The notes under the pieces are model-generated. The model was given only the letters and a program-made list of their open reading frames with translations. It was not told where the DNA came from and ran no database searches. The position numbers and the translations under genes are program-made. A stretch of DNA of 24,947 bases from Mycobacteriales bacterium (GTDB lineage: Bacteria; Actinomycetota; Actinomycetes; Mycobacteriales; SCTD01), in NCBI GenBank assembly GCA_035495395.1, contig DATJGA010000056.1, positions 1 to 24,947 on the forward strand, given 5' to 3'. Positions 2,324-24,947 of the stretch are shown piece by piece. Within the stretch, counting starts at the first letter, position 1. Every line of letters starts with the position of its first letter.

Positions 2324-2416
2324 CACGCTGACCACCTCCGCGGGGGCTGGGAGCCCGGGGCGGCTCCGCTCGTCGTACCGACGCAGCTCACGTGGGACGT
2401 GAGCGAGGTGCCTCCC

Positions 2417-6764: not shown

Positions 6765-6812
6765 CCGACGTACCGGTGTGGTGGTTGGATGTTGTCCGAC
6801 CCAGGAGGACGC

Positions 6813-8033
6813 GTGAACGAAGGACGTGCCGCCGCGGAGGCGGGCTTCGACCCCGCTCGACTCGAGCGCCTCGACCGCCACTTCGCGGGGTACGTCGACG
6901 ACGGCCGGCTCGCCGGGTGGGAGCTCGCGCTGACGCGTCACGACGGTGTCGTGCACACGAGCAGCTACGGGTGGCGCGACCGCGAGGCCGAGGTGCCGGT
7001 CGACGGCAAGACGGTGTGGCGCATCGCCTCGATGACCAAGCCCATCACCGCGGTCGCGGCGATGTCGCTGTGGGAGGAGGGGGCCTTCGAGCTCACCGAC
7101 CCCATCAGCCGGTGGCTGCCGGAGTTCGCGCAGCCGCAGGTGTACGTGAAGGGCAACCACCTCAACCCCTTCACGGCGCCGAGCCAGGAGCCGATCCGCG
7201 TGTGGCACCTGCTCAGCCACGCCTCGGGGCTGAGCGCGGGCTTCATGTACACGCACGTCGTCGACCACCTCTACCGCGCCGCCGGCTACGAGTGGGGCGC
7301 CCCGCCCGGGTCGACGCTCGCGGACTGCGTCCGCGACTGGGCCGCGCTCCCGCTGCGCTTCGAGCCCGGCACCGCCTGGGGGTACGGCGTGTCGACGGAC
7401 GTGCTGGGACGACTGCTCGAGGTGGTGACCGGCAAGACCCTCGACGAGGTGTTCACCGAGCGGGTGCTGCGCCCGCTGGGCATGGACGACACCGGCTTCT
7501 TCGCCGAGGGCCCCCGAGCCGACCGGCTCCCGGCGGTCTACCAGCGCGACCCCGTGACCGGTGCGGCGCTGCGCAACGACGCGATGAGCCAGACCGGCCG
7601 GGTGATGCCGACGGTGCTCTCCGGCGGTGGCGGCCTGGTGAGCACCCTCGACGACTACACCCGCTTCACCCGCATGCTGGCGCTGGAGGGCGAGCTCGAC
7701 GGCGTCCGCCTGCTCACGCCCGCCACGGTGCGCCTCATGCGGCAGAACCACCTGCCGGGCGACCTCGGCCAGGTGTCGACCGGCGGCTTCGCCGAGACGA
7801 CCTTCGACGGGGTCGGCTTCGGCCTCGGCTTCGCCACCGTGCTCGACCCCGTCAAGCTGCGCTCGCCCAGCTCGCCGGGGGAGTTCTACTGGGGCGGCGC
7901 CTACAGCACCGCGTTCTGGGTGGACCCGGTCACCGGCATCACCTGCACCTTCATGGCGCAGCTGTTCCCGTCGAGCACCTACCCGATCCGGGCGCAGCTC
8001 CGGCAGCTGGTCTACAGCGCCTTCACCGGCTGA
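6813..8033 (+). CDS. Serine hydrolase, beta-lactamase-related fold (family VIII carboxylesterase-like)
   Basis: SxxK (IASMTK), LLSHASG, FEPGTAWGYG with catalytic Tyr, SGGGGLVST and a C-terminal WGG motif. GTG 6813 follows a strong CAGGAGG SD. Confidence 0.9.
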   Translation: MNEGRAAAEAGFDPARLERLDRHFAGYVDDGRLAGWELALTRHDGVVHTSSYGWRDREAEVPVDGKTVWRIASMTKPITAVAAMSLWEEGAFELTDPISRWLPEFAQPQVYVKGNHLNPFTAPSQEPIRVWHLLSHASGLSAGFMYTHVVDHLYRAAGYEWGAPPGSTLADCVRDWAALPLRFEPGTAWGYGVSTDVLGRLLEVVTGKTLDEVFTERVLRPLGMDDTGFFAEGPRADRLPAVYQRDPVTGAALRNDAMSQTGRVMPTVLSGGGGLVSTLDDYTRFTRMLALEGELDGVRLLTPATVRLMRQNHLPGDLGQVSTGGFAETTFDGVGFGLGFATVLDPVKLRSPSSPGEFYWGGAYSTAFWVDPVTGITCTFMAQLFPSSTYPIRAQLRQLVYSAFTG

Positions 8034-8809
8034 GCCGCGTCGACCTCGGCCAGGAAGCCGAGCACCTCCAGGGTGGGCGCGTCGCCCACCTCCACGAGGT
8101 AGTTGTGCCCGCAGCCCTCGTACTCGACGAGCCGGCTGTCCGGCAGCGTCGCGGCGAGCTCGCGCCCCCACTCGACGGGCACGATGGGGTCCTCGGTGCC
8201 GTGCAGGACGAGCGCCGGCATCGTCAGTGCCGCCAGGTCGGACAGGCTGCCCTGGTAGGCGCGCAGCGCGTCCTGCTGGGCGACGAGGGCCTGTGGCACC
8301 GCGGTGTCCTCGAGGATGGCCCGGTGGTTGCGCGTCCTCGCCTCGGGCGGGCAGACCGAGCCGTACGCCGTGCTGTCCGCGAGGTCCTTCCGGGAGGCCG
8401 CCAGCAGGGCGTCGTTCACCTCGATCGGGGCGCGCGGCTTGTCGGGGGTGAGGACGCAGGTGCAGCCCAGCACGAGCGACCGCACCCGCTCCGGCGCCGC
8501 CTTGGCCAGCTCCAGCGCGAGGACGCCGCCGAGGCTGATGCCGTAGACGTGCGCGGTCTCCAGGCCGGCTGCGTCGAGCACCGCCAACGCGTCGGCGGCG
8601 AGGTCCTCGATGCTCACCCCGGGGCGCCAGCTGCTACGGCCGGTGCCCTGGTTGTCGAAGGAGACCAGCGCGTGGTGCGCGCGCAGCAGGGGCAGCGCCG
8701 GGTACCACATCGCGCTGCTGTAGACCGCGCCCATGACGAGCAGCACCGGGCTGCCGGACCCGGTCTGCTCCCAGTGCAGGTGGTACCCGTCCCGCTGAAG
8801 CAGGCTCAT
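8012..8809 (-). CDS. Alpha/beta fold hydrolase (esterase/enol-lactonase-like), 265 aa
   Basis: Nucleophile elbow GISLGG, acid HGTEDPIVP, His in GCGHNY, FDNQGTGRS. ATG 8809 overlaps the stop of the upstream gene (ATGA, 8806-8809). The long 5' part of ORF 8012..10288 is a shadow. Confidence 0.9.
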   Translation of the reverse strand: MSLLQRDGYHLHWEQTGSGSPVLLVMGAVYSSAMWYPALPLLRAHHALVSFDNQGTGRSSWRPGVSIEDLAADALAVLDAAGLETAHVYGISLGGVLALELAKAAPERVRSLVLGCTCVLTPDKPRAPIEVNDALLAASRKDLADSTAYGSVCPPEARTRNHRAILEDTAVPQALVAQQDALRAYQGSLSDLAALTMPALVLHGTEDPIVPVEWGRELAATLPDSRLVEYEGCGHNYLVEVGDAPTLEVLGFLAEVDAAQPVKAL

Positions 8810-10632
8810 GCGCCGACGGTGCGACGGTTGAGCACCGCTGCCGGTCGGCTGAGCTCGACGTACCAGCTGCCCTGGGTGAGGGGCGTCTGGATCGCGGGCG
8901 CCGCGGCAGCGCCCGAGGGCGGGGTGCACTTGCTGTAGAAGGTCCGCCCGGTGACGTAGCCGGTCTTGGTGAAGATGTGCGCGGGCCGGCTGGGGAAGTG
9001 GCCGAGGGTGTAGCGCTGCCCGCAGTCGGCGTAGGCGTACGTGCCCATGCTCTCGTCGGCGTCGAGGTGGTCGGGGTCCCACCAGTAGACGCTGGCTGCC
9101 TTCGGGAAGGAACGGCGCCCGGGGTCGTCGTAGTCGCCCACCATGGCCCAGCTCTCGCGGTGGCTGGTGCCCACTGCGGGGATGTCGAGGTAGGCCTTGG
9201 CGAGCGACTCCCGCGTCAGGTGCGGCCCGTTGAGCTGCACCGCGGCGACCGCGTGCGAGATCATCTCCCAGTAGATGTGGCAGTACAGCGGGTGCGCGAC
9301 GTAGCCGGAGTCGACGCTGGCCACCGCCTTGTAGCACTCCATGTCGCTCGGGGCGAGGTTCACCTCGGCGATGTTCAGGCCGAAGGTGTGGCCGAGCTCC
9401 TCGACCGGCACGTCGCGGGTGAGGTAGGCGTCCTGGTCGAGCCCGCCCCAGCCGGTGGTGATCCACTCGGGGTAGTAGCCGATCCCCTCCGCCTGGATCT
9501 CGATCGCCATCGCGTCGACGATGTCGGTGTTGAGGATGACCGAGGAGACGTTCTCGCTCTGCAGCTTGAGCAGCGCCTGCTGGATCTCGTTCGCCATGTC
9601 GACGCCGGGTGCCTGGTCCAGCGGCGCGACACCGCAGGTCTTCAGGCCGGAGAGCAGCGTCGGGCCGGAGTTCGCCCAGGGCAGGGCGATCTCGATCGCG
9701 CCCCACGTGCGGTCCTTCTTCGGGTCGAAGGTCGCGTTGCCCGTCCTCACGCCGGCGATCGGCGGGTGCCCCTTGACCTGCTTGCAGATCCACTCGGCGG
9801 TGAGCTTCGCGGCCAGCGTCGGGCTGACCTGGCTCCAGGAGTAGCCGACCGGTCGCCGGGCCTGGTAGTACGACTCGATCGGGGCGAGCCACGAGTCGTT
9901 GACCACGTGGGCCTTCGCGTACTCGTCGATCTCGCCCTGGGTGCCCTCGATCTGCGCGGCGATCGGGTGGTACTTGGAGATCGCGTCCGTGGTGTCGGAC
10001 CGCTGGGTCGACTCGTCGGCGGTCGCGCTGCCCTCGGTGGCGTAGGCGAGCTGCAGCTTGCGGTTGTACGTCATCGCGTGCTTGTTGAAGTACTTCTGGA
10101 TGTCGTTCAGCGTCCGCAGCTGGGCCGAGGAGCGCGCGGTCGCGTCGTTGATGACGCCGTCGGTCTGCTGCTGGCCGTAGAACGACACGACCATGCTGTA
10201 CGTCGTGGAGGTGACCCCGGGCTGGGTGCTGCCGCCGTTGTTGCCGATGAACGCCGCCTGGCAGGGCGGCGCGTAGACCGAGTCCCACTGCCGCGGCGGG
10301 TCCCAGTTGGTGGCGCAGGTGACGGTGCTGCCGCCGGTCTTCTCCGGCGGTGTCGCCACCGGTACGGCGGTCGGCGGCGGCGTCGGCTTGCCGGCGCCCT
10401 CCTGGCCCGCGGTGTTGCTGCCGGGCTGGAACTGGGTCTTGATGAGGCTCTGCGCCTTGGCGTTCGGCGGCGCGTCGGGGGAGTACTCGCTGCCGCTCTG
10501 CGTGGTGTCGGGCGGCGGGCGCAGCGCGGAGGGCAGCACGAAGGCGACGACGAGCAGGGCCATGGCGGCGTACCCGGCGGGGACCAGCCGGTTCACCGCC
10601 TTGCTGCGCGTCGAGCGCCGGTCACGCGCCAC
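8806..10632 (-). CDS. Large membrane-anchored solute-binding protein, probably LivJ-like type I periplasmic binding fold, 8 Cys
   Basis: Basic N-terminus plus one hydrophobic segment (no lipobox), Pro/Thr-rich linker, NGGSTQPGVT entry into an alternating alpha/beta domain, YYPEWITTG and LNGPHLTRESL segments resembling HAAT-family SBPs. LivHM/FG genes lie across the promoter. Confidence 0.7.
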   Translation of the reverse strand: MARDRRSTRSKAVNRLVPAGYAAMALLVVAFVLPSALRPPPDTTQSGSEYSPDAPPNAKAQSLIKTQFQPGSNTAGQEGAGKPTPPPTAVPVATPPEKTGGSTVTCATNWDPPRQWDSVYAPPCQAAFIGNNGGSTQPGVTSTTYSMVVSFYGQQQTDGVINDATARSSAQLRTLNDIQKYFNKHAMTYNRKLQLAYATEGSATADESTQRSDTTDAISKYHPIAAQIEGTQGEIDEYAKAHVVNDSWLAPIESYYQARRPVGYSWSQVSPTLAAKLTAEWICKQVKGHPPIAGVRTGNATFDPKKDRTWGAIEIALPWANSGPTLLSGLKTCGVAPLDQAPGVDMANEIQQALLKLQSENVSSVILNTDIVDAMAIEIQAEGIGYYPEWITTGWGGLDQDAYLTRDVPVEELGHTFGLNIAEVNLAPSDMECYKAVASVDSGYVAHPLYCHIYWEMISHAVAAVQLNGPHLTRESLAKAYLDIPAVGTSHRESWAMVGDYDDPGRRSFPKAASVYWWDPDHLDADESMGTYAYADCGQRYTLGHFPSRPAHIFTKTGYVTGRTFYSKCTPPSGAAAAPAIQTPLTQGSWYVELSRPAAVLNRRTVGA

Positions 10633-11374
10633 GCCGGCCCGCCTTCGTCCTGGTCGGGCGCGCGGGGGAGCCGTTGTGCTGCGGCTCCGGCTGCGCCCCG
10701 ACGATCCGCAGCGCGATGTCGGAGTACGACGCGCACAGCGCCTCGGCGGTCACGCCGTACGCGTAGGGGAACCAGCCGGCGAGGCCGACCCCGAGGCTCC
10801 AGAAGACCACGGTGATGGCGTCGTCGTCAGGGTTGCTGAAGGTGCCGGTGCGACGGCCGCGGTCGAGGACGTCGCGCAGGATGCGCGCCGACTGCAGGCG
10901 GGCCGACTGGTCGCGCTCGAAGGCCGCGGGCGACAGGTTGCGCACCTCGCCGTTGACGATGCGGGTCAGCCGCGGGAACTCGCACGTCATCGTCACCAGC
11001 GCGGACATCGCGGCGGTGAGCTGGGCACGCGGGTCGTCGCCGACGTCCATGACGGCGGCGATCTGGCGCCGGCTGAACTCGGTGTGCCCGAGCTCGCTCA
11101 GCGCGTCGAGCATGGCCTGCTTGGAGGCGAAGCTCTTGTAGAGGCTGGCCGACTTGATGCCCACCAGCGCGGCGATGTCGCGCACCGACGTGGCGGCGTA
11201 GCCGATGTCGCCGAAGAGCTCCACGCAGGCGGACAGGATCGCGTGCTGGCTCGGGGTGAAGCGGTCCGTCGCCGGCAGCCCGCGGGGGTCGAGGTCGCTG
11301 CGCCACGGCAGGTTCGCCGACGACGTGGTCACGAGGGAAGCAGCCTCGGAGAGCGCTCCGGCCGACGTGGACAC
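10622..11374 (-). CDS. TetR/AcrR family transcriptional regulator (C-terminus resembles the KstR2-like group)
   Basis: HTH AILSACVELFGDIGYAATSVRDIAALVGIKSASLYKSF; C-terminal RIVNGEVRNLS...VLDRGRRTGTF...LAGWF. Start is uncertain. GTG 11374 is preferred because TTG 11410 is part of a TTGACA -35 box. Confidence 0.9.
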   Translation of the reverse strand: MSTSAGALSEAASLVTTSSANLPWRSDLDPRGLPATDRFTPSQHAILSACVELFGDIGYAATSVRDIAALVGIKSASLYKSFASKQAMLDALSELGHTEFSRRQIAAVMDVGDDPRAQLTAAMSALVTMTCEFPRLTRIVNGEVRNLSPAAFERDQSARLQSARILRDVLDRGRRTGTFSNPDDDAITVVFWSLGVGLAGWFPYAYGVTAEALCASYSDIALRIVGAQPEPQHNGSPARPTRTKAGRRGA

Positions 11375-11381
11375 GGCGGTC

Positions 11382-11410
11382 AGTCTGCTTCCGGGCACCG
11401 GGGCTGTCAA
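11382..11410 (-). promoter_or_regulatory. Housekeeping-sigma promoter of the tetR operon: TTGACA-17 bp-CAGACT
   Basis: Perfect -35 (11410-11405), 17-bp spacer, CAGACT (11387-11382), then 7 nt to in-frame GTG 11374 with no SD. Confidence 0.6.
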
Positions 11411-11420
11411 GGACGACTGG

Positions 11421-11436
11421 GGTAGCGCTCGCTAGC
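11421..11436. promoter_or_regulatory. Palindromic operator A (GGTAGCG-CT-CGCTAGC), probable TetR site
   Basis: One mismatch from GCTAGCR-N2-YGCTAGC. Lies 10 bp upstream of the tetR -35. A near-identical copy sits 120 bp away. Confidence 0.6.
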
Positions 11437-11540
11437 CGTACGCCGTGCTCTCGAGGCATCGCTCGTGGAAAACCCTTGTGCGATAGGCGATCTTGGAAGC
11501 GCATATCGGACACCGCGAGAACGGGCTCGCGAAACAAGGT

Positions 11541-11556
11541 GCTATCAAGTGCTAGC
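11541..11556. promoter_or_regulatory. Palindromic operator B (GCTATCA-AG-TGCTAGC), probable TetR site
   Basis: One mismatch from the same palindrome. Overlaps the putative -35 of the rightward operon. Confidence 0.6.
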
Positions 11557-11581
11557 CAAACCCTGTGACCGCGGTTACATT
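11553..11581 (+). promoter_or_regulatory. Putative promoter of the 8-gene operon: TAGCCA-17 bp-TACATT
   Basis: TAnnnT -10 at 11576-11581, a 4/6 -35 at 11553-11558, and 7 nt to in-frame GTG 11589. Confidence 0.45.
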
Positions 11582-11588
11582 GGCCGAC

Positions 11589-12512
11589 GTGCTGGCCGCG
11601 AGAACCCAGAGTCGTGCGCCGCGCCAGGGCCGTTCGAGTGCGCTGTCCCGGCGTGTGGTCGCGGCTGCTGCCGTCGCGCTGCTGGCGTCGGGGTGCCTGC
11701 TGCACACGAAGACCTCGGAGGGGCGCGCGCTGCACCGGGCGCCGCAGGTGCTCGCCCGCGCGCAGAGCGTGGGCCTGTCCCTGACGGTGTCCTCGCGGCT
11801 GGCCCGGGTCGGCTCCCTCACCAGCCTTCCCGCACCCGACCCCGGCTTCCACGTCGACGGGGTGCTCGACCTCACGACCGGCCGCGCGGCGTACACGGAC
11901 GCGGGCCGCACGGTGGCCGTCTTCGACCGCAAGCACGTCTTCGCGCTGCGGCCGCACGCCCGCCCGACGGACGCCCGTCCGTGGGTCGAGGTGGCGGTCG
12001 ACGAGGACCTCCAGGACCTCGTGCTCGACCCGGGTGCGCTGCCGCCGTCGCTCGCGCTGCGCGCGCTGCGGCCGTCGGTGCTCGTCGACGCGCTCGCCGG
12101 CGCGCTGACGGGCAGCATCGAGCGGCGTGGTCAGGAGGACGTCGACGGAACGCCCACGACGAAGTACACGGCCCGCTTCGACCTGACCCAGGCGCTGGCC
12201 GAGAGCACCCGGCACCGCTACTCGCAGCACGACCAGGACGACCTGGCCAAGCTCTTCGAGGTGCTGGGGGTCAAGGAGGACGCCCTCAACGACGGCGCCG
12301 TGTGGCTCGACGCGCAGGGCGCTCCGCGCCGGCTGCAGCTGGCACTGCGCGAGTCCCCGACCCCGCAGAGCCTCATCCTGCTGCTGGTCGACCTGCGGCT
12401 GACCCCGCGGTCGGAGCCGGTCCTCATCGACGTGCCGGCGGTCAGCGCGGTCACGACCGTCCCGTCGCTGTTCCAGTTCCTCCAGCCGCTCAAGCCCGGG
12501 GCCGCCGCGTGA
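11589..12512 (+). CDS. Lipoprotein, LppX/LprG (LolA-like) fold candidate
   Basis: SRRVVAAAAVALLASGC signal with lipobox. Beta-rich body with GQEDVDGTPTTKYTARFDL and VWLDAQGAPRRL, as in LppX_LprAFG-like proteins. Alternative start GTG 11565. Confidence 0.65.
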   Translation: MLAARTQSRAPRQGRSSALSRRVVAAAAVALLASGCLLHTKTSEGRALHRAPQVLARAQSVGLSLTVSSRLARVGSLTSLPAPDPGFHVDGVLDLTTGRAAYTDAGRTVAVFDRKHVFALRPHARPTDARPWVEVAVDEDLQDLVLDPGALPPSLALRALRPSVLVDALAGALTGSIERRGQEDVDGTPTTKYTARFDLTQALAESTRHRYSQHDQDDLAKLFEVLGVKEDALNDGAVWLDAQGAPRRLQLALRESPTPQSLILLLVDLRLTPRSEPVLIDVPAVSAVTTVPSLFQFLQPLKPGAAA

Positions 12513-14731
12513 GCCGGGTCGCGCAGCTGCGCCGCGCCGCTGCTCCCGTGCTCTTCCTCCTGCTCGCCGTCGCTGCCGGCCGGCTGGTGACCGTCGTGCA
12601 CGGCACCTCCACCGCGCCCTGGGGCATCCTCCTCGGGTACGGCGCGGTCTTCGGCTGCGGCACCGCCCTGTCCAGCGTGGGCCTCGTCCTCGTCTACCGC
12701 TCGGCGCGCATCATCAACTTCAGCCAGGCGTCGTACGGCGTGAACGCGGCGCTGCTCTTCCTCCTGCTCACGACGGGGAAGGGCTGGAACTACTGGGTCG
12801 CGCTCGGGGTGAGCGTGCTCGCGACCGCTTCGGTCGCCTTCCTCGTCGAGCTGCTCGTGCTGCGGAAGTTCGCCAAGGCGCCGCGCCTGGTGCTCACCCT
12901 CATCACGGTCGTCCTCGTGCAGATCTTCGCGGCGGTCACGATCCTGCTGCCGCGGGCGTTCGGCTACTCGCCCCCCAAGAACGGCCTGCCCTACGTGCGG
13001 CTGCCCTCCTTCCCCGCGCGCACGCCCTTCGACCGCACCCGCTTCCACTGGGCCGGGGCGCCCTTCAACGGCGACCACGTCGCGCTCGTCGTGGCCACGC
13101 TCGTGATGGTGCTCGCCCTGGGCCTGTTCCTGCGGAAGAGCCGTCTCGGCACGGCGATCCGCGGCGCGGCGGAGAACTCGTCGAGGGTCGAGCAGCTCGG
13201 GGTCAGCACCGGGGTGCTCTCCTCGACGACGTGGGTGCTGGTCGCCGTGCTGTCCGCGGTCGGCGCGATCCTCGCCACGACTGCCCAGGGGGGCACCCTC
13301 CAGCAGTACTCGCAGAGCGCGGACGCGGCCTACGGCCCGCTGATGGTCGCGCTCACCGCCGCCGTCATCGCCCGGCTCGAGAGCCTGCCGATGGCGTTCG
13401 CCGCCGCCTTCGGCCTCACCGTCTTCGAGCAGGGCCTGACCTGGTCGTTCAACAACGACCAGGCGGTCCTCAACCTCGTCCGGTTCGGCCTCATCCTGCT
13501 CGTGCTGCTGCTGCAGCCGACGCGCCGCTCGCGCACCGACGCGGCGTCCTCCAGCAGCTGGGCCGGCAGCGAGGAGATCCGCGCCATCCCGTCGGTGCTG
13601 CAGCGGCTGCCCGCCGTGCAGACCGGCGTACGGCGGGCGCGCTGGGTGTTCGGCGGGCTGCTGCTGGCCTACCCGTTCGTGGTGTCGCCGGGGCAGCTCT
13701 CGCTCGGCACGACCTACGTCATCTACGCGATCGTCGGGGTCTCCATCGTCATCCTCACCGGCTGGGCCGGCCAGGTGAGCCTCGGCCAGTTCGCGCTCGT
13801 CGCGGTCGGGGCGCTCACCGGGGCGTGGGTGATCGGCGACCTGCACCTGCCGTTCGGGCTGGCGCTGGTGGCGGGCACCGTCGTGTCCGCGCTGGTCGCG
13901 GTGCTCGTCGGGCTGCCGGCGCTGCGGCTGCAGGGGCTCTACCTCGCGGTCACCACGCTGGCGCTGGCGACGACGACGGCCGGCCTGATCGGCTCGCACC
14001 GCTTCCTCGAGCCGCACCTGCCCAGCGCGGTGGGCCGGCCCCAGATCCTCGGGCTCGACCTCAACACGAACCTGCGCGGCTACTACTACCTCTGCGTGGC
14101 CGCGACCGCGCTGGCCGTCCTCACCGCGGCACGGCTCCGCCGTACCCGCACGGCGCGGCTGCTCATCGCGATGCGCGACAACGAGCGGATGGCGCAGGCC
14201 TACGGCATCAACCTCGTGCGCACCCGGCTCATCGCGTTCGCGCTCTCGGGCGGCATGGCCGGCTTCGCCGGCGTCCTGTACGTGGTCCAGCAGCGCGCGG
14301 TGACGGCCGGCTCGTACGGGCCGCAGCTCTCGGTCTCGATGTTCCTCATGGCCGTGCTCGGCGGCCTGGGCTCGGTCTACGCGGTCCTCGCCGGGGCGGC
14401 GTACTTCGCGATCTGCGCGACGGTGGTGTCCGGCACCCTCGCCACGCTGCTGACCGGCGGCATCGGGGTGCTGCTGGTCATGCTGTTCTTCCCGGCCGGC
14501 CTCGGCGCGATGGGCTACTCGGTGCGCGACGCCTGGCTGCGCAGGGTGGCGCAGCGCTACCGCATCTACGTCCCGAGCCTGGCCGGTGACCGCATCAAGC
14601 GCGGCGAGGAGGCGCTGGTGCCCATCGCCGCCGGCACCGAGCGCGAGCCGCTGCCCGAGCGGTACCGCGTGCCCTCGCGGATCAGCGAGTTCGGGCGCTC
14701 GCAGCAGCTGGCGAAGGCGTGGCGGTACTGA
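12509..14731 (+). CDS. Fused LivH-LivM branched-chain-amino-acid-type (HAAT) ABC permease, 740 aa
   Basis: LivH half: GLVLVYRSARIINFSQ and GTAIRGAAEN. LivM half: TGWAGQVSLGQ, LRLQGLYLAVTTL and MRDNERMAQAYGIN. GTGA overlap with the upstream stop at 12509-12512. Confidence 0.9.
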   Translation: MSRVAQLRRAAAPVLFLLLAVAAGRLVTVVHGTSTAPWGILLGYGAVFGCGTALSSVGLVLVYRSARIINFSQASYGVNAALLFLLLTTGKGWNYWVALGVSVLATASVAFLVELLVLRKFAKAPRLVLTLITVVLVQIFAAVTILLPRAFGYSPPKNGLPYVRLPSFPARTPFDRTRFHWAGAPFNGDHVALVVATLVMVLALGLFLRKSRLGTAIRGAAENSSRVEQLGVSTGVLSSTTWVLVAVLSAVGAILATTAQGGTLQQYSQSADAAYGPLMVALTAAVIARLESLPMAFAAAFGLTVFEQGLTWSFNNDQAVLNLVRFGLILLVLLLQPTRRSRTDAASSSSWAGSEEIRAIPSVLQRLPAVQTGVRRARWVFGGLLLAYPFVVSPGQLSLGTTYVIYAIVGVSIVILTGWAGQVSLGQFALVAVGALTGAWVIGDLHLPFGLALVAGTVVSALVAVLVGLPALRLQGLYLAVTTLALATTTAGLIGSHRFLEPHLPSAVGRPQILGLDLNTNLRGYYYLCVAATALAVLTAARLRRTRTARLLIAMRDNERMAQAYGINLVRTRLIAFALSGGMAGFAGVLYVVQQRAVTAGSYGPQLSVSMFLMAVLGGLGSVYAVLAGAAYFAICATVVSGTLATLLTGGIGVLLVMLFFPAGLGAMGYSVRDAWLRRVAQRYRIYVPSLAGDRIKRGEEALVPIAAGTEREPLPERYRVPSRISEFGRSQQLAKAWRY

Positions 14732-17643: not shown

Positions 17644-18644
17644 ACGCCAGCCTCTTCAAGAAGCGCTTCGACAAGATCGCCGACAACGTCAACTCGGTGA
17701 TCCACGGCAAGGACGACGTGGTGCGGCTGGCCCTCGTCGCCGCCTGCGCCAACGGGCACGTCCTGTTCGAGGACGTCCCCGGCGTCGGCAAGTCCATGCT
17801 CGCCCGGGCGCTGGGCATCTCCATGGGGTGCGGCACCAACCGCATCCAGTGCACGCCCGACATGCTGCCCGGCGACATCACGGGGTCCTCCGTGATCGAC
17901 CAGTCCGGCGGCCGCATGAAGTTCGTCTTCAAGCCGGGCCCGGTGTTCACCAACATCCTGCTCGTCGACGAGATCAACCGCTCGACGCCCAAGACGCAGT
18001 CGGCGCTCCTCGAGGCGATGGCCGAGCGCAACGTCACCGCCGAGGGCGTCACCCACCCGCTGCCCGCGCCCTTCCTGTGCCTGGCCACGCAGAACCCGAT
18101 CGAGAACGCCGGCACCTTCCCGCTCCCCGAAGCCCAGCTCGACCGCTTCCTGTTCAAGCTCTCGATCGGCTACCCGGACCTCGAGGCCGAGCGCCTCGTG
18201 GCCCGCGGCAACGCGCTCACCCTCGAGGTGGACAACCTCGGCCCGGTCTGCAACGCCGAGGAGATCGTGGAGATGCAGCGGATGGCCTCGGAGGTGACGA
18301 TCTCCACCGCCGTCGAGACTTACATCCTCGAGATCGTCCAGGCGACCCGGCAGGACAAGGCGCTGCTCATGGCCGCCAGCCCGCGCGCCACCATCGCGCT
18401 CTTCAAGGCCTCCAAGGCGCTGGCCGCCGCCGACGGTCGCAGCACCGTGTACCCCGAGGACGTCAAGGCGCTGCTCAACCCGGTGCTCGCCCACCGCACC
18501 CTGCTCTCGCCCGAGGCGCTGCTGCGGGGCGACAGCGTCAGCGACGTCCTCGAGCGCACCGCCGGTCGCATCAAGCCCCCGATGGTCAGCGCGGTCGACG
18601 TCCCCGAGGCGCCCGCCCGCCGCCGTACCCGCAAGGCCTCCTGA
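17640..18644 (+). CDS. moxR: MoxR-family AAA+ ATPase (MoxR proper type)
   Basis: EDVPGVGKS, RIQCTPDMLPGDITG, ILLVDEINR, ATQNPIE..GTFPLPEAQLDRF and ASPRA. GTGA overlap and a GGAG SD. Confidence 0.93.
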   Translation: MNASLFKKRFDKIADNVNSVIHGKDDVVRLALVAACANGHVLFEDVPGVGKSMLARALGISMGCGTNRIQCTPDMLPGDITGSSVIDQSGGRMKFVFKPGPVFTNILLVDEINRSTPKTQSALLEAMAERNVTAEGVTHPLPAPFLCLATQNPIENAGTFPLPEAQLDRFLFKLSIGYPDLEAERLVARGNALTLEVDNLGPVCNAEEIVEMQRMASEVTISTAVETYILEIVQATRQDKALLMAASPRATIALFKASKALAAADGRSTVYPEDVKALLNPVLAHRTLLSPEALLRGDSVSDVLERTAGRIKPPMVSAVDVPEAPARRRTRKAS

Positions 18645-18652
18645 GCCCGACC

Positions 18653-19984
18653 GTGACCGCTCTCGACGACGTGACCACGACCAGCGCCCCGGCGCCGGCT
18701 GCCGCTGCGCCGGCCGCCGAGACCGTCGTGCAGCAGGTCGAGGTGCAGCACAAGCTCGGCCGCCGGGTGATGGACCGCATCACCGACGTCACCGGGTTCA
18801 CGTCCTCGGGCCTCATCCTGCTCGGCATCACCGCCGGGGCCTGGTCGCTCGGCTACTACGTCGGTGGCCGCCCGCTCTACCTCATGGCGTACGGCGGAGC
18901 CGCCGTGCTCGTGGCCTCGTGGCTCTACGGGCGCCGGACCCCTGACCTGACAGGGGCGCGCTCGGAGGTCCAGGCGCGGGTGCGCGAGGGCCAGTCGGTC
19001 ACCGTCGAGGTGTCGCTCACCGCTGGTCGCCGGATGTCGACGCTCATCCTCGAGGAGCGGCTGCCCCCGGTGCTCGGTGCGTCGCCGCGGATCTCCATCG
19101 CCGAGCTGGCCGAGGGCGACGCCGCAGGCAACACGTACCAGCTGACCTGCTCGCGGCGCGGCGTCTACACGCTGGGCCCGCTCGTCGTGCGCTGGGGCGA
19201 CCCGTTCGGCCTCACCCAGCGGCGCCGCACGGTGTGCGACGAGTTCGAGATGTTCGTGCACCCGCGCGCCGACCCGGCCTCCGACCACCCGGCCGCCCGG
19301 CTGTGGGAGGACCCGCCGCAGCGCCCGCCCTTCTCCCGGCCGTGGCCGTCCGGCCTCGACTTCTACGGCATGCGCGCGTACGCCCCGGGCGACGACGTCC
19401 GCAACGTCGTGTGGCGCGCCTACGCGCGCACCGGCTCGCTGCTCGTCCGCGAGGCGGAGCAGGGCGTCACCGACAAGGTTCGGCTGCTCGTCGACCAGGA
19501 CGTCTCGGTCCACTCGCGCGGCCCGCTGTCGGAGTCGTTCGAGACGGCCATGCGGGTGGTCGCCTCGCTGGGGCTGCACCACCTCAAGGCCGGCTACACG
19601 GTGACCACCGACGGCAACGCCGAGCGCATCGCGCGGCCGCTGCGCGGCGTCGGCCGGGGCGGCATCGAGCTGCTCGACGCGCTCGCCCAGCTCAACCCGG
19701 TGAAGGCCAACCTGCTCGACATGCTGGCGCGTGTCGAGGCCACCGTCACCAACGACGTGGAGCTCATCGTCGTCACCCCGCGGCTCACCCTCGACGCGAT
19801 CCTGCGCATGCGGCTGCTCGTCGACCGCGGCGTCTCGGTCCGGGTGGTCGCGCTGCTCTGGGACGAGGAGGCCATCGACCACCTCGGGCAGGCGGCCGCG
19901 CTCGGCCTGAAGATCGTGGAGATCGGCCCGACGACGAACATCACGATGGCCCTGGCGCACGAGGTCGGGGGTGGCCTGCGATGA
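18653..19984 (+). CDS. DUF58 domain membrane protein (vWA-like C-terminus)
   Basis: Two N-terminal TMs, Ig-like segment with RRGVYTLGPL..DPFGL, and GLDFYGMRAYAPGDDVRNVVWR (DUF58 signature). Start uncertain: 18653, 18671 or 18770. Confidence 0.87.
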   Translation: MTALDDVTTTSAPAPAAAAPAAETVVQQVEVQHKLGRRVMDRITDVTGFTSSGLILLGITAGAWSLGYYVGGRPLYLMAYGGAAVLVASWLYGRRTPDLTGARSEVQARVREGQSVTVEVSLTAGRRMSTLILEERLPPVLGASPRISIAELAEGDAAGNTYQLTCSRRGVYTLGPLVVRWGDPFGLTQRRRTVCDEFEMFVHPRADPASDHPAARLWEDPPQRPPFSRPWPSGLDFYGMRAYAPGDDVRNVVWRAYARTGSLLVREAEQGVTDKVRLLVDQDVSVHSRGPLSESFETAMRVVASLGLHHLKAGYTVTTDGNAERIARPLRGVGRGGIELLDALAQLNPVKANLLDMLARVEATVTNDVELIVVTPRLTLDAILRMRLLVDRGVSVRVVALLWDEEAIDHLGQAAALGLKIVEIGPTTNITMALAHEVGGGLR

Positions 19985-22293
19985 CCGTCGTCGACACGCC
20001 GCCGCAGCTCGAGCTCGTCGAGCCGCTGCCGCCGGAGGACAGCGGTCCGCCGGTCGAGGTCGAGCCCGACACCCGCCCGCCGCTGGCCGACCTGGTCCGC
20101 CCGGCAGCGGCGTCCGCCCTCGTCGCGGTGGCGGCCGGTTTCGAGGTCGGCGGCATCTTCGGCTCGTGGTTCGCCCGCGGGCTCGCGGCGCTCGCCGCCC
20201 TCGTCGGCGCGCTCTGCGCCGTGCTCGCCCAGCGGTCCCGCCGGCGCGACACGCTGCTGCTGCTCTACCCCCTCGGCCTCGTCGTCGCCGGGACCGCCAG
20301 CCTCGTCACCGCACCCGGCGGGCCGGCGAAGGTGGTCACGCTCGTCCGCGAGGCGCTGCACAGCGGCAGCCTGCTGCAGCCGCCGGTGCCGTTCGACCCG
20401 GGCTGGCGCGTCGTCCTCATCGTCACCCTGGGGCTGCTCGGCTTCGCCGGCGCCTGGATGGCCACCGCGATGGCCAAGCCGAAGCTCGGGCTCGCGGTCG
20501 GGCTGCCGGTCATCGGCCTCACCGCCATCACCCAGCCCGAGGACGCCAAGCTCATCGCGGGCGCGGTGCCGATCGCGCTCATCATCGCCGCCCTCGCCAT
20601 GCTCTTCGGCGGCGACGTCCGCTCGGCCCGCGACCTCGGCCGGGCCTTCGAGCTCAAGCGCGCGGCTCGGGCCGCGACGGTCGGCGTGCCGCTGCTCCTC
20701 GCCGTCGTGCTGCTCAACAAGGCGAGCTTCCTGTTCCCGAAGCCGGTGTACGACCCGGTGTCCTCGGCCCAGAAGCCGCGGCTGGTCTCGGCGGCCAGCG
20801 ACGACGTGCTCTTCGAGGTGCGCACGAAGACGAAGCTCACCGGCCCGTGGCGGGTCGGCGTGCTCGACACGTACAAGGACGACACGTTCCTGCTGCCGCC
20901 GCAGGACAACAAGCGGCTCGCCGACGTCTCAGGGGGCAAGGCCCTGCCGGAGGTGCCGTTCCGGCCGGACACCGGTGCGGTCACGCTGGTCCTGCACAAC
21001 CTGGGGGACACCCCGATCCTGCCCAGCCTCGCGGGTACGCAGTCCGTCACCACGACGCTCGAGGGCCTGTACGTCGACCAGCGCACCGACGTCCTGCGCA
21101 TCACCAGCGGCCGCCTGCCGTCCGGGCTGGAGTACACGCTGCACGTCCCGCCGTACGCGACGACGGTCGATCTCGAGGACGACGTGCCGTCGACCGGTCC
21201 GGACCTCGTCGACCAGCTCGCCGCGCCGCCGCCACCACCGGCCGTCGTCGACCTGCTCGCCAAGGCGCCGTCCAAGAACGCCTTCGACCGCATGGAGTAC
21301 GTGCAGCACCAGCTGGTCGACCACGTCACGGCCAAGGGCGCCGGCGTCCCGGTGCCGGTGAGCCCCGAGCGGGTGCAGGACCTGCTCGCCGGCTCGCGGG
21401 TGGGCTCGCCCTTCGAGATCGTCGCGGCCCAGGCGCTCATCGCGCGCTGGGCAGGCATCCCCAGCCGGATCGGCTTCGGGTACGACGGGGTCAACCACGA
21501 GCAGACCGGTGTCATCTCGGTGCGGCCGCGGAACGCGGCCGACTGGCTCGAGGTGAACTACCGGGGCTACGGGTGGCTGCCGCTGGTCTCGCAGCCGAAG
21601 CACGCGCAGCAGGACCTCAAGAACAAGCCCAAGCAGCACCACATCCTCGCCAACGGCGACATCGCCGTGCAGGTGTTCGTGCCCTACGAGCTGGTGACCG
21701 CGAAGCAGCTCTACCAGGTGGTGCGGTACTGGATCCTCGTCACCTCGCCGTTCGTCCTGCTGCTGCTCGGCAGCTACCTCGGCTGGCCCACGGTCGCCCG
21801 GGCGCGGCGCCGCACGAAGCGGCGGCGCTGGGCGCAGGCCCGCGGTCCGGCGTACCAGGTGGCCGTCGAGTACGCCGAGATGCGCGACACCGCGACCGAC
21901 CTCAACGTCGGTGACCTCGTCTCCACGCCGCTGGAGTACCTGTTCCAGGTCGCGCGCGACGACGAGCACGCCGAGCTGGCCTGGCTCACGACCCGGGTCC
22001 TGTACGGCGACCTCATGGACACCGTCACCGACGAGGACGTCGTGCGCGCCGAGGAGATGTCGCGGTCGGTGCGCCGTCGCCTCATGCGCGCGCAGCCGGT
22101 GCAGTCGCAGTTCCTCGCGGCCGTCTCGCGCGCCTCGCTGCGGACGCCGTACGAGCCGGCGCTGCCGAACGTGCGGGTGCTGCGCTTCCCGCGCCCGCTC
22201 GCGGCGCTCCGCCGCTGGTCGACCCGCCGGGCGCGCGCCCTGCGGCTCGCCCTGCTCGCCCTGCCCAGACCCCGACGGAGGATGTCGGTATGA
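19981..22293 (+). CDS. TgpA-like transglutaminase-domain membrane protein, catalytic triad absent
   Basis: Multi-TM N-terminus, extracellular domain, TGase-like core ALIARWAGIPSRIGFGY...WLEVNYRGYGW, one TM, then a DUF4129-like tail. ATGA overlap at 19981-19984. Confidence 0.8.
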   Translation: MTVVDTPPQLELVEPLPPEDSGPPVEVEPDTRPPLADLVRPAAASALVAVAAGFEVGGIFGSWFARGLAALAALVGALCAVLAQRSRRRDTLLLLYPLGLVVAGTASLVTAPGGPAKVVTLVREALHSGSLLQPPVPFDPGWRVVLIVTLGLLGFAGAWMATAMAKPKLGLAVGLPVIGLTAITQPEDAKLIAGAVPIALIIAALAMLFGGDVRSARDLGRAFELKRAARAATVGVPLLLAVVLLNKASFLFPKPVYDPVSSAQKPRLVSAASDDVLFEVRTKTKLTGPWRVGVLDTYKDDTFLLPPQDNKRLADVSGGKALPEVPFRPDTGAVTLVLHNLGDTPILPSLAGTQSVTTTLEGLYVDQRTDVLRITSGRLPSGLEYTLHVPPYATTVDLEDDVPSTGPDLVDQLAAPPPPPAVVDLLAKAPSKNAFDRMEYVQHQLVDHVTAKGAGVPVPVSPERVQDLLAGSRVGSPFEIVAAQALIARWAGIPSRIGFGYDGVNHEQTGVISVRPRNAADWLEVNYRGYGWLPLVSQPKHAQQDLKNKPKQHHILANGDIAVQVFVPYELVTAKQLYQVVRYWILVTSPFVLLLLGSYLGWPTVARARRRTKRRRWAQARGPAYQVAVEYAEMRDTATDLNVGDLVSTPLEYLFQVARDDEHAELAWLTTRVLYGDLMDTVTDEDVVRAEEMSRSVRRRLMRAQPVQSQFLAAVSRASLRTPYEPALPNVRVLRFPRPLAALRRWSTRRARALRLALLALPRPRRRMSV

Positions 22294-23327
22294 CCCCCAC
22301 GCGCCGCCGTGCCCGCCTCGCAGCGGGTCCGCTGCTCCTGGCGCTGGCCCTGTCGGCCTGCGGCCCGCACACCGACTCGACCATCGCCATGCGCGCGACC
22401 GCGCTCGACCTGCAGTTCGCCCGTCCGGACCTCGCCGTACCGGTGCCGCCGAAGGTCATCGTGCGGCTGCTCCCCGCCCCGCCGGTCGCCCTGCACCACA
22501 TCGTCGACCCGTCCGTCCCGGTGCTCCCGCCCCCGCCGCCGCCCGCGCCCGCCGGCTGCCCGGCGGCGACCGCGCCGGGCACGCCGGGCAAGCCGCTCGC
22601 CACCTCGACGCTGGGTGCCCCGACCGCCGGCTACTACACGTACGCGACGAAGGGCACCGGGACCGTCAGCGGCGGCACGGACACGACGTCCGCCGCCCTG
22701 CCGGCGTCGACCTACGTCGCGATCAGCGCCAGCCAGCAGGTCCCGCCCGACTCGACGGTGGCGGCCGAGGGCGGTGCCCCCGCCTCGGGCACCGAGACGC
22801 AGTACACGGTGACCACCCAGCTCTCGAAGTCGGTCACCCAGATCGACACCCTCGCGGTGAGCGCGACGTCGATCAACCTCGTGAAGCGGCAGCTGAGCAA
22901 CGCCGAGCGCACCTTCGACTTCGTGCCCACGCCGCAGGTGCAGCTCATGGTGTTCGGCCCGGTTGGCAGCACCTGGTCCTCGCGCGGCACCGACAGCGGC
23001 ACGTCCTCGACGCTCGACTACGCCGGGTCGATCGACGCGGTGACGGAGGTGAAGGTCTGCGGCGTCGTCACCAAGGCCTACCGCGTGAGCTACCAGGAGA
23101 CGCTGACCAACCCGACCGGGTCGGAGGTGATCCGCACCGGCACGGACAGCGCGCACCCGGCCACGTTCACGATCGCGCCGCAGCTCGGTGGGCTCGTGCT
23201 CGCCCAGCAGGTCTACTCCGACGACGTCCGCCTCTACCGCGACCTCAGCGGGTACGTCGGGACGACGCTCGACTACACCTCGGTGCTCACCGACCTTGTC
23301 CCGGCGACCCAGGCGGCGCCCACGTGA
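22290..23327 (+). CDS. Uncharacterised lipoprotein with Pro-rich stalk and beta-rich C-terminal domain
   Basis: MTPTRRRAR...LALALSAC lipobox, PPPPPPAP linker, Thr/Ser/Val-rich beta pattern. ATGA overlap. Confidence 0.75.
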   Translation: MTPTRRRARLAAGPLLLALALSACGPHTDSTIAMRATALDLQFARPDLAVPVPPKVIVRLLPAPPVALHHIVDPSVPVLPPPPPPAPAGCPAATAPGTPGKPLATSTLGAPTAGYYTYATKGTGTVSGGTDTTSAALPASTYVAISASQQVPPDSTVAAEGGAPASGTETQYTVTTQLSKSVTQIDTLAVSATSINLVKRQLSNAERTFDFVPTPQVQLMVFGPVGSTWSSRGTDSGTSSTLDYAGSIDAVTEVKVCGVVTKAYRVSYQETLTNPTGSEVIRTGTDSAHPATFTIAPQLGGLVLAQQVYSDDVRLYRDLSGYVGTTLDYTSVLTDLVPATQAAPT

Positions 23328-23875
23328 GCCGCCCCGCCCTGCTCGCCCCGCTCCTCGCCGTACTGGTCCTGGCCGGCTGCCAGGACGCACCAGAGGCGGC
23401 GCCGCGGCCGGTGCCCACGGCGCTCGCCCCGACCTCGGTGCTCCACGGGACCCTCGGCCTGTACCGGAACACCGCTGCCGGCACCGAGGCGGCGTTCCGC
23501 CAGAACGCCAAGGCCTCGCTCATCGACGAGGGCCAGCTGTGGGAGATCCGGCGCAAGGACCGGCTCATCGGCACCCTGCAGATCGCGACGGTGAAGCACG
23601 ACGTCGACCTGTCCGACAAGGACGTGCGCGAGCAGTTCACCGCGCCGATCCTCGTCGGCGCCCGCGGCGACATCCGGGTGCTGGGCCAGGAGGTCGACAT
23701 GGTCCAGAACGAGGGTGGGCTGGCGACGCTGGTCTGGTTCGGCAAGGGGCTGTTCCTCGTGCTGCAGGTCAAGGACCAGCTCGTCAGCGGGCCCGACCTC
23801 GCGCAGGCGATCATCGAGCACGAGCAGTCCCGTCCGGAGTGGACGCCGCTGCCGGAGCTGTACTCGCCGACCTGA
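23324..23875 (+). CDS. Uncharacterised small lipoprotein, 183 aa
   Basis: VSRPALLAPLLAVLVLAGC lipobox, GTGA overlap at 23324-23327, protein-like composition. It is the 3' part of ORF 21911..23875. Confidence 0.75.
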   Translation: MSRPALLAPLLAVLVLAGCQDAPEAAPRPVPTALAPTSVLHGTLGLYRNTAAGTEAAFRQNAKASLIDEGQLWEIRRKDRLIGTLQIATVKHDVDLSDKDVREQFTAPILVGARGDIRVLGQEVDMVQNEGGLATLVWFGKGLFLVLQVKDQLVSGPDLAQAIIEHEQSRPEWTPLPELYSPT

Positions 23876-24934: not shown

Positions 24935-24947
24935 GACCGGCAACCTA

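Follow-up and report, generated by a model that had tools for sequence, protein, structure and literature searches.

The window analysed here is a 24,947-nt stretch of DNA from a Mycobacteriales bacterium (contig DATJGA010000056.1 of assembly GCA_035495395.1, positions 1 to 24,947), part of a soil metagenome-assembled genome of 2.4 Mb that is 73% complete. It carries a divergent locus in which an ATP-binding cassette (ABC) transporter of the Liv/HAAT type is encoded together with a MoxR ATPase, a DUF58 protein and an apparently inactive relative of the transglutaminase TgpA. The eight rightward genes encode a lipoprotein (A), a fused LivH-LivM permease (B), a protein joining an MFS permease to a LivF-like and a LivG-like nucleotide-binding domain (NBD) (C), MoxR (D), the DUF58 protein (E), the TgpA-like membrane protein (F) and two further lipoproteins (G and H). 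The leftward unit encodes a TetR-family regulator, a predicted solute-binding protein (J) and a predicted hydrolase (K). We propose that these genes form one TetR-controlled uptake system in which MoxR and DUF58 act on an assembly of F with the transporter, and we would give this reading a probability of about 0.45. It starts from gene content, conserved linkage, gene fusions, a lost catalytic triad and predicted folds, which are there to be read in the data; the physical association of the parts, the direction of transport, the class of cargo and the role of MoxR are what we infer from them.

Operons of MoxR, DUF58 and TgpA/YebA are common in bacteria and archaea, with no client or mechanism known (PMC3507681, PMC3495828). 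In P. aeruginosa PA2875-PA2874-PA2873 are co-transcribed, and TgpA is an essential periplasmic protein with an intact triad and transglutaminase activity in vitro (PMC3507681). Zhang and Aravind (2012) predicted a degradation system for the 'MoxR-vWA-YebA' operon (PMC3495828). MoxR-vWA pairs are known to have particular complexes as their targets, most of them encoded close by (reference 49 of PMC3495828). For about 20 years the trio has had no known function, and the linkage described here would give it a working partner that can be tested. In the full-text literature searched we found no paper that joins the MoxR-DUF58-transglutaminase trio to an ABC or MFS transporter, and the statement of the first-pass annotation of this DNA that no characterised system has such a parts list still holds for that literature. 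New here are the presence of both paralogous forms of the locus in one Mycobacteriales genome, the fission of the F, G and H genes, the layout of TetR with two candidate operators and the co-regulated hydrolases.

Gene maps of relatives were anchored on tblastn matches. The genome sets are samples of the order and of the phylum, and 'not found' applies to the sets searched; many loci are cut by contig ends, and related genomes are not independent of each other. With C as the anchor, species-representative genomes yielded three full-length relatives, two of which, L001 (74% identity) and L004 (44%), keep the order B-C-D-E-F; L001 has G and H in addition. Homologues of F (E ≤1e-30) occur in the order sample at 10 places in 8 of 301 genomes, all of them in the window's family (the window's own genome and 7 of 32 others; none in 18 other families), and in the phylum sample at 29 places in 20 of 401 genomes, mostly in two families of another Actinomycetota class (9 of 10 and 7 of 21 genomes). 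Two genomes marked as unpublished, G023 and G030, appear only as rows in the tallies of the window's genome set and of the order; no positive claim rests on either, and G023 has no F-type match. At all 33 distinct loci fetched, LivHM, LivFG, MoxR, DUF58, G and an H-type domain stand beside F as far as the DNA reaches. Counted over 34 locus entries (the 33 loci and L093, which reaches E and not F), B is present in 32, LivFG in 32 (26 with the MFS domain), MoxR in 30 and DUF58 in all 34. The genes come in two orders, B-C-D-E-F(-G) and D-E-F-G-B-C-H. The window's own genome has a second, paralogous locus (G000:C281), in which an MFS-less LivHM-LivFG is followed by MoxR, DUF58, an F-type and a J-type protein. 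The co-occurrence that the first-pass annotation had proposed to look for is therefore found, the set being kept over two classes, two gene orders and two paralogous forms.

This bears directly on the idea that a nutrient importer and a TgpA-type envelope module are simply two independent neighbours kept together by shared regulation or descent. Each module does occur alone elsewhere, as simple J-LivHMFG loci and as classical MoxR-DUF58-TgpA operons (PMC3507681), and many of the carriers are related, so that the counts are not independent. However, the set stays together through the changes of order, form and class just described, stop/start overlaps join both modules, and no F-type protein was found away from the transporter in the 10 order-sample and 20 phylum-sample places that were fetched. 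We would be surprised if mere neighbourhood were the explanation.

A maximum-likelihood tree of the LivF-LivG pair (45 rows), rooted at the midpoint only and thus no proof of the order of events, places the MFS-less MoxR-linked form in one clade (100/100). Simple transporters with neither MoxR nor MFS form another (96/89), nested within the MFS- and MoxR-linked grade, and this nesting fits loss of the module rather than its repeated gain. Two loci with the MFS domain and no MoxR (L002 and L091) fall inside the simple-transporter clade. The window and L001 cluster (92/84) with those loci of the other class that have the alternative order, and not with the paralogues of their own family. The transporter is thus found without the module and F never without the transporter, which would be expected if the transporter were the partner or client of the MoxR module. 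This asymmetry between the transporter and the F-type module is the key point.

F itself keeps the overall design of TgpA, with about six transmembrane (TM) helices, an extracytoplasmic transglutaminase-like core, one TM helix and a conserved cytoplasmic tail, and its gene follows those of MoxR and DUF58 as in the MoxR-DUF58-TgpA operon. It aligns to the periplasmic domain of P. aeruginosa TgpA (6g49) with an E-value of 1e-3; the TgpA_N model gave no significant match to F (E 7.8). While the TgpA triad is intact, the corresponding Cys, His and Asp positions of F are Pro477, Ala520 and Val536 in the alignment to 6g49, and the triad is lost in 33 of 33 distinct fetched relatives, in which Pro stands in place of Cys, Ala or Ser in place of His and Val, Ile or Thr in place of Asp. 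Around the lost Cys the motif x-P-[FY]-E-[IL]-[VT]-A is conserved, and the Cys motif GxCxxF[AS] occurs in none of 95 full-length library representatives of F. The dead transglutaminase noted in the first-pass annotation is thus a property of the whole family, which, judged by its residues, is a catalytically dead transglutaminase fold throughout. Since the fold is kept without its triad, it would be selected for something other than catalysis. The family is small, with 158 representatives (E ≤1e-30) among 1.84 billion cluster representatives. For this branch the membrane-proximal degradation model of PMC3495828 is ruled out by the absence of the catalytic triad. F also differs from TgpA in having a Mog1/PsbP-like domain and a barrel lipoprotein, either as parts of itself or at its side, and in that the trio is embedded in the operon of an ABC importer. 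What we describe would thus be a branch of the trio without catalysis that is tied to one transporter through fusions, fissions and reshuffled gene orders in every place examined.

The fusions concern the two lipoproteins encoded behind F. Longer F proteins (900-1000 aa) have, behind an additional TM helix, a C-terminal domain that is homologous to H. F includes this domain at 16 of the fetched loci and, among 150 library representatives, in 85; a separate H lipoprotein gene is found only in the window's lineage and in the alternative-order loci, in all 12 of which an H-like lipoprotein gene follows C. An H-type domain is present in every fetched locus whose DNA reaches far enough. G is fused to the C-terminus of F in 3 of the 150 library representatives, and its profile matches 33 of 34 locus entries, the one entry without a match being a contig of 5.9 kb that breaks off within E. 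Fusions and fissions of this kind are a classical sign of physical or functional association, and from them G and H would lie on the outer side of F. The proposal that all parts of the locus form one complex is supported to this extent, in that linkage and fusions argue that the parts belong together; a physical complex is a further step that we only infer. Two F-H proteins of ~1400 aa (P0092 and P0095) have a DUF4434 domain after H (E 4e-26 and 4e-25), which we take to be a glycosidase-like TIM-barrel family; this is a hint that a hydrolase can be part of the outside platform. The TM helix before H ends, in most of the long F proteins, in a lipobox-like Cys motif (such as LGAC, LGGC or LAGC; for example at L004:17211-17780, L106:6970-7557 and L111:14101-14664), and four loci are without the Cys. 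Such an internal motif suggests that this helix might be processed as lipoprotein signal peptides are, by lipidation and cleavage, and that H would then be set free.

A lipobox was found in the window's G and in 17 of 17 relatives examined, and its Cys is invariant in the 19-sequence alignment of G; most H-type sequences have it as well. No Pfam family matched A, G or H. The AlphaFold2 (AF2) model of G, built from this alignment with a predicted local distance difference test (pLDDT) score of 74, shows a Pro-rich stalk and a closed beta-barrel of ~12 strands (residues 114-333). Foldseek matched it to the YmcC-like lipoproteins 4fvs (E 4e-4) and 3fzx (E 6e-4), with a TM-score of 0.44 by target, and the VIA Z-scores were 10.0 for the DUF1849 protein 6ntr (root mean square deviation 4.0 over 175 residues), 9.5 for 4fvs, 8.4 for mycobacterial LmcA (7n3v) and 6-7 for LolA. 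In the ESM Atlas G goes with DUF3108-like clusters. The model of H (pLDDT 79) is an alpha/beta sandwich with Z-scores of 8.6 for TM1622, 8.5 for the PknH sensor domain, 8.1 for Mog1 and 7.2-8.0 for Apa, PsbP, DcrB, TiME, Mtc28 and LpqN. With Z-scores of this middling height both folds are probable as assigned, and they do not establish a function.

On the cytoplasmic side, D has Walker A and B motifs that are conserved in 30 relatives, and E reads as an N-terminal two-helix membrane hairpin followed by cytoplasmic beta-sandwich and vWA-like parts. Because both NBDs of C and the MoxR protein keep their catalytic motifs, two different ATP-driven motors are predicted for the locus. It is conceivable that the second motor belongs to a sensor, F, G and H responding to a ligand or to the state of the envelope, and MoxR and DUF58 signalling inward, in the way proposed for sensing systems with MoxR and vWA proteins, to switch the ABC/MFS transporter on or off. 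Catalytically inactive transglutaminase-like domains have been predicted to be peptide binders (PMC3495828), MoxR-vWA pairs take part in threat sensing in Actinomycetales (10.64898/2026.09.08.750141), the fold of H matches extracytoplasmic sensor domains such as that of PknH, and transporters of this clade can work without the module, as would suit a regulatory add-on. Two known systems come close in composition. The PFNA cluster of bifidobacteria (pkb2-fn3-aaa-atp-duf58-tgm; PMC8430577) and the Esr pathway of Actinomycetales (10.64898/2026.09.08.750141) likewise couple an actinobacterial trio of MoxR, DUF58/vWA and transglutaminase to lineage-specific surface proteins. Those systems, however, include kinases, sensors of the FN3 or beta-propeller type, FHA proteins and a transglutaminase that is taken to be active; none of these is present at the locus described here, which has an ABC importer instead. 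Clustering of the neighbours likewise revealed no kinase, FHA, beta-propeller or effector gene at the fetched loci. The PADLOC defence models gave no match for A, D, E, F, G or H and only generic P-loop matches for C, and D is fitted best by the general AAA_3 model and only with an E-value of 1e-6 by the model bpMoxR of the ternary systems. We consider a sensory or regulatory role for the module rather unlikely.

The transporter itself is recognisable in spite of its unusual build. LivH and LivM/UrtC models each match one half of B; the first NBD of C matches LivF/UrtE and the second LivG/UrtD, the latter carrying the branched-chain C-terminal motif BCA_ABC_TP_C. Walker A and B, signature, H-loop and Q-loop motifs are canonical in both NBDs over 20 full-length relatives. 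The BPD_transp_2 domains and the LivF/LivG ATPases are shared with the HAAT importers (LivJ/K-LivHMGF, UrtABCDE; TC 3.A.1.4), and J would correspond to their LivJ-type binding protein. Unlike in these, LivH and LivM form one protein, and LivF and LivG, in this order, make up the rear part of another that begins with a 12-helix MFS domain; the predicted binding protein has 608 aa and a TM anchor and lies below Pfam detection; and the operon adds MoxR, DUF58, the dead TgpA-like protein and two lipoproteins to the transporter.

The MFS domain of C (MFS_1, E 3e-42) has motif A (GFLSDRARR) between TM2 and TM3, with DRxxR conserved in the 20 relatives; motifs B and C are conserved less well, a motif-C-like GP being present in the window's branch. 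It is the least conserved part of C, with 24-33% identity compared to 53-59% for the NBDs, and its absence from the MoxR-linked paralogue G000:C281 means that it is dispensable for the link to MoxR. An AmpG-like muropeptide permease was considered for this domain and is not supported, as the best NCBIfam matches are generic drug-efflux and organic-anion families. In the MFS-less relatives LivH, LivM, LivF and LivG form one polypeptide of 1200-1314 aa. These all-in-one proteins (at G000:C45, G000:C281 and L094-L110) are unusual for a binding-protein-dependent importer, and in the window's form the MFS domain occupies precisely the place where permease and ATPases meet in this layout. The same genome and genus have many more LivG, LivHM and MFS-LivF operons (for example G000:C135:11100-15930 and G000:C28:142-2184), in which the MFS domain is fused to LivF alone; these proteins are 35-40% identical to residues 14-680 of C and have no MoxR nearby. 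A fusion of MFS and NBD is thus recurrent in the lineage and not peculiar to the MoxR-linked system.

J has one TM helix (residues 16-34) and gave no match to Pfam or NCBIfam. In the ESM Atlas it reaches a feature score of 0.98 to clusters carrying Peripla_BP_6, and its structure has TM-scores of 0.50-0.52 by query and 0.55-0.75 by hit to Peripla_BP_6 proteins of 397-544 aa, which points to a membrane-anchored, divergent binding protein of the LivJ/Peripla_BP_6 type. In the simple loci a relative of J is the gene immediately before LivHM, and J-type genes also lie in the retrieved flanks of at least 16 linked loci. The transporter thus presents three uncommon architectures, the fusion of an MFS permease to ABC ATPases, Liv importers made as a single polypeptide and an anchored LivJ-like receptor of ~600 aa that Pfam misses.

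LivHM-type permeases with LivJ-type receptors are importers. Two serine hydrolases are encoded beside J, K and a PF00144 beta-lactamase-family protein; neither has a signal peptide, and they are predicted to be cytoplasmic. The PF00144 family adjoins J or K in seven fetched loci and in two orthologous metagenomic contigs, and follows J in the MFS-less form. On these two contigs, whose A proteins are 50% and 65% identical to that of the window, PF00144, K, J and TetR lie on one side and A-B-C-D-E-F-G on the other, and the 4-nt overlap of A and B is kept. Other recurrent neighbours are a family-5 binding protein (seven loci) and a metallopeptidase-like gene (four loci). Taken together, a LivJ-type receptor and two cytoplasmic serine hydrolases suggest import and breakdown of an ester- or amide-type nutrient. 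The lipid-like cargo assumed in the first-pass annotation found no direct support, and it is this kind of nutrient to which the genes point instead. The barrel lipoprotein G and a possibly LolA-like A would leave room for a hydrophobic nutrient.

The likeness of the lipoproteins to LppX and LprG applies at most, and weakly, to A; G is predicted to be a closed beta-barrel and H to be Mog1/PsbP-like. A resembles the NCBIfam SCO4651 lipoprotein with an E-value of 7e-11, below the family cutoff. Its feature scores in the ESM Atlas are 0.92-0.96 for clusters annotated in part with LppX_LprAFG or DUF6612, PF07161 being present on 16-41%. PF07161 itself gave no match to A at E ≤10, only one of 16 homologues reached E 0.01, and sequence and profile searches of the PDB gave no meaningful match. 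On this evidence A is possibly LppX/LprG-like. No relative of A was found in the other fetched loci, and it is confined to the window's lineage.

In a machine that moves a hydrophobic or lipid-like substrate out of the cell or through the wall, the DHA-like MFS domain would be the exporter and A, G and H the carriers, in analogy to the pair LprG-P55. The latter is Rv1411c-Rv1410c of M. tuberculosis; here, too, a lipoprotein gene heads an operon with an MFS domain, and A has LppX_LprAFG-like language-model features. In contrast to LprG, A fails the PF07161 model and is restricted to one lineage, and the MFS domain of the locus is fused to ABC ATPases and optional for the module. Export could draw on MFS motif A and the motif-C-like GP, on drug-efflux families among the best NCBIfam matches, on the resemblance of G to the soluble barrels of LmcA and LolA and on the two MmpL genes and the DrrAB-like exporter just upstream. 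Nevertheless, J, the partner expected of a LivHM importer, belongs to the conserved set, the co-encoded hydrolases are cytoplasmic, the MFS domain is missing from the paralogous form and the fold matches are of middling strength. We consider an export machine improbable. A Lol-like lipoprotein sorter was set aside, the permease being of the LivHM type with a binding protein.

An uptake system would combine these elements as follows. Its engine would be a Liv/HAAT-type ABC importer composed of the anchored J, the LivH-LivM permease B and the LivF-LivG part of C, with the 12-helix MFS permease domain inserted between permease and ATPases. F would offer its dead transglutaminase fold on the outside, probably as a binding or scaffold surface, and would hold G and H there. 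E, as a membrane-anchored vWA-type adaptor, and D would be placed on the cytoplasmic face. By analogy with MoxR-vWA pairs whose clients are encoded next to them, MoxR and DUF58 may use ATP to assemble, remodel or gate the assembly of F, G and H with the transporter. The imported cargo, an organic nutrient with an ester or amide linkage, would be hydrolysed inside the cell. A more specific version, in which the trio and the two lipoproteins are an obligate ATP-driven accessory subunit of the ABC importer, is one that we can put forward only tentatively. In it a cytoplasmic AAA+ motor would act through the polytopic scaffold F and remodel either the capture platform on the outside or the transporter. 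If true, AAA+-assisted ABC transporters would be a new class, and the widespread MoxR-DUF58-TgpA/YebA operon would have its first defined client.

Several observations weigh against an uptake system that depends on MoxR. Related transporters without the MoxR module imply that it is not needed for basic transport, and the two loci with MFS-LivFG fusions that fall among the simple transporters in the tree (L091 and L002) have no MoxR, F or G in the DNA covered. A search of B and the NBDs for columns and indels that separate MoxR-linked from unlinked members gave only three conservative substitutions and a few small gaps. A hydrophobic cargo, or export, would be just as compatible with the beta-barrel and LolA/LppX-like lipoproteins. 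Finally, the carriers are all uncultured soil bacteria, and although near-identical DNA is present in soil and rhizosphere metagenomes of 12 studies, no RNA run containing the locus was found among them.

The regulation of the locus probably involves the TetR protein, whose gene is divergent from a transporter gene in six fetched loci, that of the window and five of the MFS-less form. Between tetR and A the palindrome GCTAGCRNNYGCTAGC is matched twice with one mismatch each (O1 and O2 in Table 1), and no further match at up to two mismatches exists in the window. With 0.65 matches expected and two or more in 15 of 100 shuffles, this window statistic alone is weak. The comparison with the orthologous metagenomic locus L138 is stronger evidence for the palindrome pair. 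There the motif GCTAGCRNNYGCTAGC again occurs twice in the TetR-A spacer (9845-9860 and 9954-9969, 109 bp apart), and the copies are at equivalent positions while the remaining spacer has diverged. The TetR-linked MFS-less paralogous loci have a different palindrome (AACGATCGTT-like), which is likewise present twice, ~110 bp apart, around a TTGACA box. A TetR with a two-palindrome candidate operator in its own divergent promoter region is a layout that the window shares with L138 and with these paralogous loci. The start of tetR in the window is probably GTG 11374 or 11332, since TTG 11410 sits inside a TTGACA box; TetR orthologues are 225-238 aa long. A third 16-bp palindrome of a different sequence (TGTGACCGCGGTTACA, one mismatch) at 11564-11579 overlaps the first candidate start of A, and its right half GTTACATTG is kept in L138. 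A scan of 11200-11800 for sigma-70 promoters and terminators found nothing, and an Rfam scan of the whole window gave no family above threshold and therefore no riboswitch hint to the cargo.

The described genes were picked out by third-position G+C in a window of ~72% G+C, and their coordinates are collected in Table 1. The layout given in the first-pass annotation was confirmed, including the overlapped leftward genes and the two copies of the palindrome between the divergent units. The rightward genes A-H are joined by six stop/start overlaps and one short gap. Read from the sequence, the overlaps are GTGA at 12509, 17640 and 23324, ATGA at 19981 and 22290 and, at the B/C junction (14731), TGATG with a 1-nt overlap; D and E are separated by 8 bp (18645-18652). 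In the leftward TetR-J-K unit, J overlaps the TetR stop by 11 nt and K, the last gene, overlaps J by ATGA (ATG 8809). The PF00144 gene lies beyond the left border drawn earlier and was included here as a recurrent neighbour; its frame is open from 6525, and the absence of a signal peptide applies if it starts at ATG 6789.

Table 1. Features of the proposed TetR-controlled transporter locus with their positions in the window, strand and the basis of each assignment
Feature	Position	Strand	Basis
PF00144 beta-lactamase-family serine hydrolase, predicted	6789..8033	+	Pfam E 2e-65
K, cytoplasmic alpha/beta-hydrolase (S33-like), predicted	8012..8809	-	Abhydrolase_1 E 6e-25; no signal peptide
J, 608-aa solute-binding protein (predicted), one-TM anchor	8806..10632	-	ESM Atlas matches
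TetR-family regulator	10622 to ~11332-11410	-	TetR_N and TetR_C_24; start uncertain
O1, operator-like palindrome GGTAGCGCTCGCTAGC	11421..11436	.	beside the tetR-side TTGACA
O2, operator-like palindrome GCTATCAAGTGCTAGC	11541..11556	.	120 bp from O1, just upstream of A
A, lipoprotein	11565 (or 11589)..12512	+	lipobox LASGC; possible Tat motif SRRVV
B, fused LivH-LivM permease	12509..14731	+	two BPD_transp_2 (PF02653 E 2e-53, two stretches)
C, MFS_1, then LivF-like NBD, then LivG-like NBD	14731..17643	+	Pfam/NCBIfam; 12-TM MFS ~14731-15990, LivF-like NBD ~16050-16750, LivG-like NBD ~16830-17590
D, MoxR AAA+ ATPase	17640..18644	+	AAA_3 E 2e-56; AAA_lid_2 E 2e-19
E, DUF58 protein	18653..19984	+	PF01882 E 3e-10, 40.1 bits (cutoff 23.4)
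F, TgpA-like membrane protein	19981..22293	+	Transglut_core PF01841 30.1 bits (cutoff 23)
G, lipoprotein with Pro-rich stalk and beta-barrel (predicted)	22290..23327	+	lipobox LSAC; AF2 model
H, lipoprotein with Mog1/PsbP-like domain (predicted)	23324..23875	+	lipobox LAGC; AF2 model

On the right, a convergent gene (23879-24946, minus strand) starts 3 nt past the H stop and runs off the window. Its product is DapB_N-like at the N-terminus, with the C-terminal domain of a 2,4-diaminopentanoate dehydrogenase, and the gene was not seen at the other loci. On the left, the flank of the locus is not conserved in the two orthologous contigs. Here a DrrA/DrrB-like ABC-2 exporter (3-1073 and 1045-2256) is followed by two convergent MmpL-family transporters (2399-4606 on the plus and 4610-6730 on the minus strand), which together form a dense cluster of envelope transporters.

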